Source: Escherichia coli
GTDB lineage: Bacteria > Pseudomonadota > Gammaproteobacteria > Enterobacterales > Enterobacteriaceae
NCBI RefSeq assembly: GCF_048403405.1
Contig: NZ_CP183129.1
Reading direction: 5' to 3' (one strand)
Length of the DNA stretch: 64,000 nt
Shown: positions 3,001 through 6,000 of the stretch, piece by piece
Position numbering within the stretch: position 1 is the stretch's first letter
Layout of the letters: every line of letters starts with the position of its first letter
Position numbers: made by a program

Positions 3001-6000
3001 AGAGCAAATGGCGAAAGGTGAGAAGCCGCGTTATGACGGTCGCTGCCGCCACAGCCATGAGCATCATGCTGATGATGAACCGTGTGTTGTACGTTTTGCT
3101 AACCCGCAGGAAGGTTCTGTTGTTTTTGACGATCAGATCCGTGGTCCGATCGAATTCAGCAACCAGGAGCTGGATGATCTGATTATCCGTCGTACCGATG
3201 GTTCTCCAACCTATAACTTCTGTGTGGTGGTTGACGACTGGGATATGGAAATCACCCACGTTATCCGTGGCGAAGACCATATCAACAACACGCCACGCCA
3301 GATCAACATTCTTAAAGCACTGAAAGCGCCGGTACCGGTTTACGCGCACGTTTCTATGATCAACGGCGATGACGGCAAAAAACTGTCCAAACGTCACGGG
3401 GCGGTCAGCGTAATGCAGTATCGTGATGACGGTTATTTGCCAGAAGCACTGCTGAACTATCTGGTGCGTCTGGGCTGGTCCCACGGCGATCAGGAAATCT
3501 TCACTCGTGAAGAGATGATCAAATACTTCACCCTGAATGCCGTCAGCAAATCTGCCAGTGCGTTCAACACCGACAAGCTGCTGTGGCTGAACCATCACTA
3601 CATTAACGCGCTGCCGCCGGAGTATGTTGCTACTCAATTACAGTGGCACATTGAGCAGGAAAATATCGATACCCGTAACGGCCCGCAGCTGGCTGATCTG
3701 GTGAAACTACTGGGTGAACGCTGCAAGACGCTGAAAGAGATGGCACAGAGCTGCCGCTATTTCTACGAAGATTTTGCTGAGTTCGATGCCGACGCCGCGA
3801 AAAAACATCTGCGTCCGGTAGCGCGTCAGCCGCTGGAAGTGGTTCGTGACAAACTGGCCGCGATTACTGACTGGACCGCTGAAAACGTTCATCACGCTAT
3901 TCAGGCGACGGCGGATGAGCTGGAAGTGGGGATGGGTAAAGTTGGTATGCCGCTGCGTGTCGCCGTAACCGGTGCGGGGCAGTCTCCGGCGCTGGATGTT
4001 ACCGTTCACGCAATCGGTAAGACCCGCAGTATCGAGCGTATCAACAAAGCGCTGGCTTTTATTGCTGAACGCGAAAATCAGCAGTAATTAGCGCATAAAA
4101 GATAAACGGCAGGAGAGATACCCCTGCCGTTTTTTATTTATCCGGTGCGCCGTAAAACCCCGTCCTTCAGGGCGGGGATATAAGGCGCGGTTTTCCACCT
4201 GACCAGGTGTTTGCTGTTGTTCAATGTATTGGCGGATGACGGATATTGGCGCACCTCCGCAGCTACTGGCAAAATAGCCAGGACTCCACAAAACGCCTTT
4301 GTAGTAATACCTGACGGCAATATCTGGTCGATCTCGTCGCAGTCACCTACCCGATACGCCTTTGAGGCTGTTTACCAGACTGGATATCGCCAGTTTGGGA
4401 GGATAGTTAATTAACAAATGGACGTGATCTGGTTCGCCATCCATTTCAACCAGTTCAGCTTCAAAATCAGCACATACCTTTGAAAAGTAAGTGCGTAGTT
4501 TTTCTGTCGCGTCATGGTCAAAAATCTGGCGTCGGTATCTGGTGACAAAGACCAGGTGAACATGCATCAGGAAAACACAATGCCTTCCACGCCGGATATC
4601 GGTTTCTTTTTTCACAGACCAAAGTATCATTTGGCCTGTGAAACGACTACAGGCATTTAAATTCCAGTTAAGACCCGGTGGTCAACAGGAGCGTGAAATG
4701 AGGCGCTTCGCAGGCGCATGTCGTTTCGTTTTCAATCGTGCTCTGGCGCTTCAGAATGAGAATCATGAGGCCGGTAATAAATACATCCCTTACGGGAAAA
4801 TGGCTTCCTGGCTGGTTGAGTGGAAAAACGCCACTGAAACGCAATGGCTTAAAGATTCGCCCTCACAGCCATTGCAACAGTCACTGAAAGACCTTGAGCG
4901 GGCTTACAAAAACTTCTTCCGGAAGCGGGCTGCTTTTCCCCGATTCAAAAAGCGGGGACAGAATGATGCATTCCGCTACCCGCAGGGCGTTAAGCTCGAT
5001 CAGGAAAACAGCCGTATTTTTCTGCCGAAACTTGGCTGGATGCGCTACCGGAATAGCCGTCAGGTCACGGGTGTTGTGAAAAATGTCACTGTCTGCCAGT
5101 CCTGCGGTAAGTGGTACATCAGTATTCAGACAGAAAGTGAAGTATCAACTCCGGTTCACCCTTCAGCATCAATGGTCGGGCTGGATGCTGGCGTGGCTAA
5201 ACTCGCCACGCTGTCAGATGGCACAGTCTTTGAGCCTGTAAACAGTTTTCAGAAAAACCAGAAGAAGCTGGCGAGACTTCAGCGACAGTTAAGCCGCAAG
5301 GTCAAATTCAGCAACAACTGGCAGAAGCAGAAACGCAAAATACAGCGACTGCATTCCTGTATCGCAAATATCCGCAGGGACTACCTTCATAAAGTCACAA
5401 CGACCGTCAGCAAAAACCACGCAATGATAGTCATTGAGGATTTGAAGGTCAGTAACATGTCAAAGTCAGCAGCGGGTACGGTCAGCCAGCCGCGGCGCAA
5501 TGTCCGGGCAAAATCAGGTTTAAACCGTTCGATACTGGATCAGGGCAGGTATGAAATGCGCCGCCAGCTTGAGTACAAGCAGCTCTGGCGTGGCGGTCAG
5601 GTGCTTGCTGTTCCGCCAGCGTACACAAGCCAGCGTTGCGCGTGCTGTGGTCATACAGCGAAAGAAAATCGCCTGTCACAAAGTCAATTCAGATGCCAGG
5701 TATGTGGATATACAGCGAACGCCGATGTAAACGGCGCTCGTAACATTTTAGCGGCGGGGCACGCCGTTCTTGCCTGTGGAGAGATGGTGCAGTCAGGCCG
5801 CCCGTTGAAGCAGGAACCCACCGAAATGATTCAGGCGACAGCCTGAACGTAGCAGGGATCCTCGTCATTCAGGGCGTGGAGGATGTCAAGCTGATTCATC
5901 TATGTCGAGACGAGCAAGGAAATTACGAATTCCTTCGCGTGACAAAAATTGCGCAACTTTTTCCTGCTCACTGTGAGTCATGTTGTCTATTGCGCTGATG

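Follow-up and report, generated by a model that had tools for sequence, protein, structure and literature searches.

An IS609 copy with a tnpA pseudogene and an open tnpB in the last codon of Escherichia coli yfeD

The element found beside gltX in this E. coli genome is IS609 (IS200/IS605 family), an insertion sequence that is already catalogued, named and annotated in RefSeq. Our best explanation, which we consider very likely, is that this is a fixed, non-autonomous copy whose TnpB-omega-RNA module is most likely drifting toward loss of function; by analogy with characterised elements, it is probably a decaying copy that works by the known TnpB homing mechanism. What follows is mostly a correction of the annotation, in which the locus should appear as IS609 with a tnpA pseudogene that arose by nonsense mutation and stop loss, and not by a frameshift. 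All positions refer to the window, by which we mean the whole 64-kb stretch of DNA that was analysed.

Identical DNA is labelled "IS200/IS605-like element IS609 family" in RefSeq, with 100% identity to such copies, and identity to the RefSeq-annotated IS609-family copies as a group was 98–100% over 1748 bp. The original prediction had placed an IS200/IS605-family element between the gltX stop (4087) and yfeD, and we found it there with tnpA on the minus and tnpB on the plus strand, the two genes diverging from start codons separated by a 7-bp gap. The traits of the family are present as well: a Y1 HUH TnpA (here a pseudogene), imperfect subterminal hairpins at either end and no terminal inverted repeats, and insertion at TTAT without duplication. 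The span first proposed for the element was 4140–5885; its exact ends are 4142 and 5889, as fixed from the empty site and eight other copies (Table 1). The empty site reads ...TTTAT/GCTGATTCAT (the slash marks the insertion point), without duplication, and TTAT abuts CCGGTG or CCAGTG in all nine E. coli copies that we sampled, which represent seven loci. TTAT was also seen at most close relatives in other genera.

Table 1. Features of the IS609 copy and its flanks (window coordinates)
Feature	Position	Strand	Remarks
TTAT target site, presumed TAM	4138–4141	+	Adjoins the left end on its 5′ side
IS609 element	4142–5889	+	1748 bp, no target duplication; aligned with the empty site and with copies from other loci
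Left-end subterminal hairpin	4147–4188	+	Core CCCCGTCC-TTCA-GGGCGGGG at 4158–4177, extended by GCGCC/GGCGC
Lost native stop of tnpA	4199–4201	-	CAG here, TAG in intact 143-aa TnpA
tnpA pseudogene (Y1 HUH transposase)	4202–4630	-	NF033573 matches both pieces; PDB TnpA alignments; RefSeq pseudogene flag
In-frame TGA, tnpA codon 96	4343–4345	-	Leu TTA in intact copies (e.g., O157:H7); upstream of catalytic Tyr
tnpB	4638–5846	+	402 aa, GTG start; NF040570, 380.8 bits; Pfam OrfB_IS605, TNB, HTH
TnpB RuvC residues D183, E267, D363	5184–5186, 5436–5438, 5724–5726	+	Alignment to ISDra2 TnpB (8h1j/8bf8)
TnpB zinc cysteines C334, C337, C353, C356 (CxxC...CxxC)			Intact; alignment to ISDra2
TnpB lineage-specific changes S153C, G286R, W304R	5094–5096, 5493–5495, 5547–5549	+	Conservation tables
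Predicted omega-RNA scaffold	5751–5889	+	Overlaps tnpB 3′ end and right end; 5′ limit approximate
Predicted omega-RNA helices	5751–5756/5762–5767; 5773–5777/5810–5814; 5830–5836/5841–5847; 5859–5867/5872–5880		
Right-end hairpin and terminus GAGGATGTCAA	5859–5889	+	Cleavage tetranucleotide TCAA
yfeD stop codon TGA	5886–5888	-	Formed by the final bases of IS609
Predicted guide flank GCTGATTCATCTATGTCGAG	5890–5909	+	Antisense to last yfeD codons; placed by the right-end boundary

While the placement between gltX and yfeD was correct, it does not hold in the sense of a neutral intergenic site, because the insertion point lies inside the last sense codon of yfeD, 51 bp beyond the gltX stop. The right end of IS609 regenerates the Ala codon and the stop of yfeD, and strains with and without the insertion at this site share one YfeD accession (WP_000826499.1). 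In effect, the TTAT target and the TCAA terminus swap an A-TAA stop for T-TGA, such that an insertion landing in the last codon leaves the protein unchanged, an arrangement that we saw at three loci. In the present genome, yfeD has been destroyed by IS4321, the IS110-family insertion expected within about 300 bp, which begins at 6171 and lies 281 bp from IS609. In the 64-kb window, searches turned up no further copy of IS609 or of tnpA and no self-target consisting of TTAT plus the guide.

The transposase gene had been described as split across two frames. That the gene is broken was borne out, but the frameshift was ruled out: the distance from 4630 to 4291 is 339 nt, or 113 codons, which puts the two pieces in one frame, with a single TGA between them at 4343–4345, and the 17 codons separating the two open reading frames are still TnpA-like. 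The NCBIfam model NF033573 scored 102.5 and 23.9 bits on the two pieces, and alignment to solved TnpA structures placed the HUH motif (H69/H71) at 4418–4426 and the catalytic Tyr135 at 4226–4228. Comparison with an intact 143-aa reference (WP_000604902.1, in L009) revealed a second lesion that the original prediction had missed, namely the loss of the native stop (TAG to CAG, 4199–4201). As a result, the frame crosses the left end and stops at a TAA (4088–4090), appending 37 residues past the catalytic helix. Identical DNA carries a pseudogene flag in RefSeq ("internal stop; missing C-terminus"). With the TGA preceding Tyr135 and the native stop gone, we infer that the gene cannot make active transposase and that the copy cannot excise or move alone, which agrees with the earlier view that autonomous transposition is probably lost. 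Immobility is also indicated by the K-12 IS609, which gave no new insertion in mutation-accumulation lines (PMC5009759).

The nonsense allele of tnpA is about as common across E. coli as the sense allele and occurs at several loci: exact 84-mer matches numbered 2593 records for TGA and 2328 for TTA, and TGA-bearing copies were present at four different loci. One of these is ydcO, where the codon-96 TGA was read in the copy of strain B REL606 (L002) and not in the K-12 sequence itself. Among the nine E. coli copies sampled, eight tnpA genes are defective and all nine tnpB genes are full length or nearly so; pN/pS was 0.59 for tnpA, which is relaxed, and 0.30 for tnpB, evidence of purifying selection, if perhaps only in earlier times. 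Haplotypes among the nine copies are mosaic, and the direction of gene conversion, and with it the donor of the TGA allele, could not be derived from them.

The 402-aa TnpB was predicted to retain its RuvC motifs and zinc ribbon, and both alignment to ISDra2 TnpB and conservation among relatives bear this out. The catalytic residues D183, E267 and D363, which were checked for substitutions, are unchanged, and the triad and the zinc cysteines are 94–100% conserved. TnpB can thus be called intact with regard to its open frame and catalytic residues, but it is not pristine, since S153C, G286R and W304R fall at conserved positions. Residue 304 is Trp in 75/75 relatives and residue 286 is Gly in 74/75; in a wider set of representatives, the same residues occur at 77% and 86%, respectively. 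Arg at the position equivalent to W304 was found in 3 of 128 distant representatives, and the R304 allele in nine of 5053 matching records. The exact TnpB sequence of the present copy is carried on 483 contigs, a number that argues against rapid extinction of the lineage. The effect of G286R and W304R is judged here by conservation, and TnpB may still work; as natural variants of conserved positions, the two changes lend themselves to inexpensive testing. For the Trp of ISDra2 that corresponds to W304, the text of the literature searched gave no mutational-scan data. On the function of E. coli IS609 TnpB, the literature search yielded surveys of resistomes and mobilomes, a mutation-accumulation study, and a single paper that lists a purified "IS609" TnpB (PMC12781874).

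Hairpins had been anticipated at both ends, and we recovered the left one by folding and the right one by covariation. The left-end DNA hairpin folds at -17.3 kcal/mol (z = -2.55), is kept in relatives, and has AAAA at 4154–4157, 5′ of its foot. The right-end DNA hairpin folded alone was not significant (z about -0.1), and in 39 elements seven of its nine pairs showed compensatory change. Its terminus is kept at about 70 loci across Proteobacteria, with similarity ending right after GTCAA. In the present copy, T5862 and A5867 are unpaired, and the resulting UU and AG mismatches occur in the window row only among the 39 elements. The mismatches are common to three of the nine E. coli copies, including one at the yeaQ locus, and the presence of this right-end variant at yeaQ suggests that it may be transposition-competent.

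The last ~140 nt of the element fit an omega-RNA with a guide starting at 5890, antisense to the yfeD 3′ end, in line with the original prediction of a guide RNA reading into yfeD: the flank is indeed the 3′ end of that gene, and a covarying, predicted scaffold extends up to the right end. Since single-sequence folding of the 3′ region was uninformative (z = -1.58), we took the structure from covariation. A first alignment (71 sequences, 240 nt) gave a poor consensus owing to insertions in the right-end hairpin, and was replaced by a set of 39 sequences of the same geometry. In this set, 92% of cells in the four helices were paired, compared with 42–50% when partners were slid, 16 of 27 helix pairs had changed on both sides, and the covariation score was 0.347, as against 0.06–0.09 in the slid controls. 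One covarying helix lies entirely inside the coding region, and the helix at 5830–5836/5841–5847 contains the tnpB stop. For the guide we assumed a length of 16–20 nt, as in characterised TnpBs; no other copy of its sequence was found in the window. At three loci (yfeD, ydcO and yedK), the guide runs antisense to the host gene's 3′ end. No curated RNA family reached its gathering threshold in the 3′ region of the window or of 20 relatives. RAGATH-18 (RF03064), derivatives of which guide IS607 TnpBs (PMC11061315), scored 25.4 bits at 5773–5816, with the similarity confined to the helix CCUGUGGAG…UGAAGCAGGAA, and membership was rejected, as this is below the threshold of 44.9 bits and 0/20 relatives reach it. 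HgcC gave a sub-threshold match at 5783–5900, and we count both similarities in favour of an omega-RNA.

Taken with published work on related elements (Karvelis 2021, PMC8612924; Meers 2023, 10.1101/2023.03.14.532601), this anatomy suggests the following course of events. The element would have entered as single-stranded DNA 3′ of the TTAT that overlaps the yfeD TAA stop, and its right end (…GTCAA) would have rebuilt the last Ala codon and a TGA, leaving YfeD unaltered. With the TGA at codon 96 and the native stop lost, no active TnpA would be made in cis and the copy would not excise on its own. The TnpB-omega-RNA module appears anatomically complete, comprising the triad, the zinc ribbon, a predicted scaffold of ~140 nt and a putative guide from the yfeD flank. 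In the model of Meers et al., TnpB cleaves the scarless joint that TnpA excision leaves in the donor, and the element is re-copied (Meers 2023, 10.1101/2023.03.14.532601); by analogy with this mechanism, which is established for the IS605 family, TnpB-omega-RNA would here cut the empty site (TTAT + GCTGATTCATCTATG…) left by excision, and, by homology, the cut would lead to recombinational re-copying of the element. Without TnpA in cis, such homing would have no substrate. Because G286R and W304R sit at near-invariant positions and the right end carries two mismatches, the module is most likely drifting to loss of function.

At the population level, IS609 occurs somewhere in ~4860 of 5426 complete E. 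coli genomes, at a median of two places per genome and ~9700 places in all, and occupies the gltX-yfeD site in 501 of the 5426, being absent from this locus in ~90%. An identical stretch of 1821 bp was found in five independent complete genomes. A point against our explanation is that intact TnpA encoded elsewhere in E. coli, where the 143-aa form is common (at least 1000 contigs), could act in trans.

The rival reading built on this point, which we regard as possible though unlikely, is that the module is fully active, that intact TnpA from elsewhere mobilises the copy, and that TnpB restores the vacated TTAT-plus-guide site. The copy has kept its ends, TTAT, the triad, the zinc ribbon and the helices of the scaffold, the number of IS609 places per genome and the frequency of intact TnpA would favour such mobilisation, as would the spread of TGA-bearing copies over four loci, and most tnpB elements lack a working tnpA, being non-autonomous and presumably moved by a TnpA acting in trans (10.1101/2023.03.14.532601). 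Against this, W304R and G286R are rare in the population and alter near-invariant residues, the two right-end mismatches are unique among 39 elements, the insertion sits at a fixed locus in 501 genomes, the 64-kb window holds no second copy, and the K-12 IS609 never moved in mutation-accumulation lines, with zero new insertions among 758 IS insertions (PMC5009759). The same K-12 result (PMC5009759) speaks against weak autonomy by low-frequency read-through of the UGA at codon 96, although the TGA was read in the REL606 ydcO copy and not in K-12. Read-through would yield small amounts of full-length TnpA extended at its C terminus, and we think it quite improbable. The TGA allele is as common as TTA and is found at several loci, as if such copies had transposed, and the stop context is UGA-C, a weak termination context that could permit a trace of full-length TnpA; however, the mosaic haplotypes allow the TGA to have spread by gene conversion instead, the product would bear 37 extra residues after the catalytic helix, and the pN/pS of tnpA is relaxed.

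Host domestication of tnpB-omega-RNA, perhaps to control the convergent gene by antisense or RNA-guided action (yfeD in the present copy, ydcO and yedK in others), would account for an open tnpB next to a decaying tnpA. The contrast between the two genes in the nine copies, the tnpB pN/pS, the guides antisense to host-gene 3′ ends and the documented TnpB-derived regulators (TldR, PMC10705468) are compatible with this, but unlike TldR the protein is full length with an intact triad, the transposon ends are kept, the locus is empty in ~90% of genomes, and the guide merely mirrors the insertion site. The present copy, moreover, has W304R, and its yfeD is destroyed by IS4321. We see domestication as highly improbable. 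A broader proposal, that a tnpB-omega-RNA kept open in ~90% of E. coli genomes beside a mostly broken tnpA reflects selection beyond the guarding of excision, for example control of yfeD, ydcO or yedK, has in our estimate a very slim chance, and regulatory retention is unlikely for the present copy given W304R and the disrupted yfeD. Finally, an intact, autonomous IS609 whose tnpA lesion is a sequencing or assembly artefact can be practically discounted: the sequence is identical in five independent complete genomes, the TGA allele is exact in 2593 records, including REL606, and the native stop carries a second, independent lesion. Finding the allele in ~2600 records means that it is not an assembly error, the alternative that the original prediction had left standing. 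We thus return to the non-autonomous, probably decaying copy as our preferred reading and compare it with known systems.

The closest of these is IS609 (the ISfinder name) at ydcO, the tnpA/insQ copy of K-12 and B. It has the same layout, 7-bp gap, ends, TTAT and codon-96 TGA; the present copy is at another locus, and its lineage adds S153C, G286R and W304R in TnpB and shares the right-end variant with two mismatches. Compared with IS608 of Helicobacter pylori, the target is TTAT instead of TTAC, AAAA takes the place of AAAG on the 5′ side of the left hairpin, and tnpA is inactivated. The combination of AAAA with TTAT fits the IS608 pairing rule; a strict TTAT/AAAA code as in IS608 was rejected, as the relative L011 has TTAC with AAAA. 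The two elements share a homologous Y1 HUH transposase (E = 1.9e-19; PDB 2a6o, 2vjv). They also have in common subterminal imperfect hairpins, insertion 3′ of a tetranucleotide without duplication, and a right end in TCAA.

In ISDra2 of Deinococcus radiodurans, the target and TAM are TTGAT, as opposed to TTAT in IS609. Its TnpB is homologous to that of IS609 over residues 3–376 (E = 7.5e-53; PMC8612924; PDB 8h1j, 8bf8, 8exa), with triad and zinc ribbon aligned; an omega-RNA from the tnpB 3′ end and right end, a guide from the flank, and a TAM equal to the target site are shared features that are predicted for IS609. The two differ in that tnpA is divergent in IS609 and co-directional in ISDra2, and in that IS609 TnpB has an extra loop (residues ~279–294). 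The OMEGA traits of a D-E-D triad, a TNB zinc ribbon and a structured scaffold followed by variable flank are all found here. A nuclease-dead regulator of the TldR type was ruled out by the intact triad, the full-length 402-aa protein and the presence of both transposon ends. The tnpB elements of Meers 2023 usually lack tnpA altogether, whereas this IS609 copy keeps its tnpA as a pseudogene.

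The element between gltX and yfeD is already known: it is IS609, and the published mechanism of its family fits everything observed here. Both short tnpA ORFs matched the IS200/IS605 transposase model NF033573 (NCBIfam), and the 402-aa protein was assigned to the RNA-guided endonuclease TnpB family (NF040570, 380.8 bits; NCBIfam), with HTH_OrfB_IS605, OrfB_IS605 and Cas12f1-like TNB zinc-ribbon domains (Pfam). Positions 4080–5900 (1821 bases) matched five complete E. coli genomes at 100% identity, in which tnpA is annotated as an "IS200/IS605-like element IS609 family transposase" (pseudogene) and tnpB as an "RNA-guided endonuclease InsQ/TnpB family protein". 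The original prediction of such an element was right as to its existence and largely right in its interpretation; the frameshift that it had assigned to tnpA was wrong.

Features of the IS609 locus and its surroundings (window coordinates unless a locus is named)
Feature	Coordinates	Strand	Remark
tRNA cluster, Lys and three Val	2019–2413	-	upstream of gltX
gltX	2672–4087	+	ORF listing, raw sequence
gltX terminator hairpin	4104–4132		3′ of gltX
tnpA (IS200-type transposase frame), two ORF pieces	4343–4630 and 4088–4291	-	
tnpB ORF	4638–5846	+	402 aa
Helix 1	5751–5756 / 5762–5767		wholly within coding sequence; 39-element alignment
Helix 2	5773–5777 / 5810–5814		39-element alignment
Helix 3	5830–5836 / 5841–5847		spans tnpB stop codon; 39-element alignment
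Helix 4	5859–5867 / 5872–5880		right-end hairpin; 39-element alignment
Host stop codon in last bases of right end	5886–5889 (yfeD); L002 3250–3253, L008 2149–2152 (ydcO, yedK copies)		TCAA = TGA on other strand
yfeD 3′ part	from 5886	-	
IS4321	6171–7496		splits yfeD
Two tRNA-Ala genes	8186–8373		downstream of yfeC

Comparison of the empty site in strain 25POL (…CCGTTTTTTATTTAT|GCTGATTCATC…) with the occupied site (…TTTAT|CCGGTGCGCC … GAGGATGTCAA|GCTGATTCATC…) placed the element at 4142–5889, giving 1748 bp without target duplication. TTAT lay directly to its left in all nine sampled copies (seven loci), and the terminus GAGGATGTCAA was almost invariant in 80 related loci from other Proteobacteria (TnpB identity 57–94%), with similarity stopping exactly past it. 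Such ends, the TTAT target and the absent duplication are hallmarks of IS200/IS605 elements. A longer query that took in both flanks found the gltX-yfeD locus occupied in 501 of 5426 genomes, a group to which O157:H7 and O55:H7 belong; about 4860 genomes had the element at some location, with a median of two locations each, and further sites included ydcL-ydcO (K-12 and B), yeaR-yeaQ, yedK, a TetR gene and a DUF3251 gene. Many beta-proteobacterial relatives (L040, L045, L046, L053, L056, L060, L061, L068 and others) carry a 25–40 nt insertion, with a nested hairpin, in the loop of the right-end hairpin, and retain the terminus. An IS609-like element (TnpB 82% and TnpA 85% identical) also stands alone on a 2057-bp contig of a Streptomyces mutabilis assembly (L023, NZ_BMTT01000064.1), probably as contamination from an enterobacterium.

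IS609 sits within the last sense codon of yfeD. On the yfeD strand, the empty site reads …GAA TCA GC|A TAA and the occupied site …GAA TCA GC|T TGA, so the IS609 right end both completes the Ala codon with its third base and brings a new stop; strains with and without the insertion share one YfeD protein accession. At ydcO and yedK the outcome was identical (A-TAA to T-TGA, host protein unchanged), and the stop is replaced because the target TTAT (reverse complement ATAA) resembles the terminus TCAA (reverse complement TTGA). In the empty site, the yfeD stop is closely followed by the gltX terminator hairpin, which scored as a terminator in the minus-strand direction too; the insertion parts yfeD from this hairpin, so that yfeD transcripts would enter the element, antisense to tnpB. 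The IS110-family insertion expected nearby was indeed found: 1326 bp long, it starts 281 bp beyond the right end of IS609, and its protein matches an IS110-family RNA-guided transposase model. Its DNA shows 100% identity to annotated IS4321 elements, and in E. coli it is carried mostly on plasmids. We saw no evidence of a functional link between the two insertions. The IS4321 insertion point, GGAAATTT|TTCCGTTTTCCAG, resembles what we take to be the reverse complement of a Tn21-family terminal repeat, the usual IS4321/IS5075 target; if this is true, it is a chromosomal look-alike target. The flanking tRNA genes follow the ordinary E. coli arrangement.

The two tnpA pieces share a frame, since their starts lie 339 nt (113 codons) apart. 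Translation from 4630 to 4088 gave a single continuous TnpA-like sequence, broken only by a TGA at codon 96 (4343–4345), and the 17 intervening codons (LRRDRPDIAVRYYYKGV) are part of the TnpA protein. Where the window reads TGA, the O157:H7 copy of this locus reads TTA (Leu). An artefact is excluded: an 84-mer with the TGA matched 2593 records exactly (the TTA version, 2328), and the ydcO-locus copy of strain B REL606 carries TGA also. The second lesion concerns the native stop, which is TAG in the intact tnpA annotated in strain GmM066 (143 aa, WP_000604902.1); the equivalent position in the window, 4199–4201, reads CAG, as in seven of nine copies, and the frame passes through the left end into the flank to stop at 4088–4090, which explains the RefSeq note "internal stop; missing C-terminus". 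By alignment to solved TnpA structures, the TGA falls between the HUH histidines H69 and H71, which are upstream of it, and the catalytic Tyr135, which is downstream, leaving the predicted product without its nucleophile. Copies of the intact protein are common in E. coli, with exact matches on at least 1000 contigs. Among 758 IS insertions newly gained by mutation-accumulation lines (PMC5009759), none came from the K-12 IS609 copy; the ydcO copy read here is that of REL606. Across the window copy and the other sampled E. coli copies (L002, L003, L005–L010), haplotypes at different loci are mosaic, and the O157 gltX copy shares a tnpA variant block with the yidH-locus copy, not with its ortholog in the window. 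This pattern suggests gene conversion between copies, which could account for the TGA allele at several loci too.

As predicted, the TnpB motifs are all present: alignment to ISDra2 TnpB (PDB 8h1j and 8bf8; E = 7.5e-53) and 75 relatives recovered RuvC residues D183, E267 and D363 and zinc cysteines C334, C337, C353 and C356. Across nine copies, pN/pS was 0.30 for tnpB and 0.59 for tnpA. Five tnpB sites in the window are unlike the eight other E. coli copies, and three of these differences are non-synonymous (S153C, G286R and W304R). W304 is Trp in 75/75 relatives and in ISDra2, and G286 is Gly in 74/75; among 128 more distant representatives, the figures were 77% Trp and 86% Gly. Only 9 of the 5053 matching records carried R304. 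To us, these substitutions suggest that constraint has relaxed in this lineage, and TnpB function may have been lost; they do not prove inactivity.

Single-sequence folding of the 3′ region was uninformative. When the terminal 175 nt were aligned across 39 elements, four helices had 92% of cells paired (42–50% with slid partners), with both-sided change in 16 of 27 pairs and a covariation score of 0.347, compared with 0.06–0.09 for slid controls. The window's right-end hairpin has U·U and A·G mismatches absent from all other alignment rows, a variant common to three of nine E. coli copies. For this 3′ region, no Rfam family reached threshold in the window or 20 relatives, the IS609-type scaffold being uncaptured by curated families; below threshold, RAGATH-18 (25.4 bits, 5773–5816) fell on the CCUGUGGAG…UGAAGCAGGAA helix and HgcC (15.6 bits, 5783–5900) over the right end. 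The TnpB guides of IS607 are RAGATH-18-derived RNAs (PMC11061315). If the omega-RNA is expressed, its guide, of presumed length, would be the flank from 5890 (GCTGATTCATCTATGT…), antisense to the final yfeD codons. Neither a second copy of this sequence nor a TTAT-plus-guide site was found in the 64-kb window, so there is no self-target within it.

In IS605-family elements, TnpA excises the top strand and joins the flanks into a scarless donor joint, TnpB with its omega-RNA recognises the TAM and guide, found together only in this empty joint, and cuts it, after which the element is regained by recombination with a sister copy (Karvelis 2021, PMC8612924; Meers 2023, 10.1101/2023.03.14.532601). 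For the window copy, the TAM would be TTAT and the cleaved target TTAT|GCTGATTCATC…; with tnpA dead in cis, this substrate would arise only if intact TnpA were supplied in trans. The copy is best read as a fixed relic that is no longer autonomous; in outline its nuclease module is whole, but it is probably decaying. Its right end, finishing in TCAA, has this feature in common with IS608, whose right end Barabas reportedly described in 2008 as terminating in TCAA.
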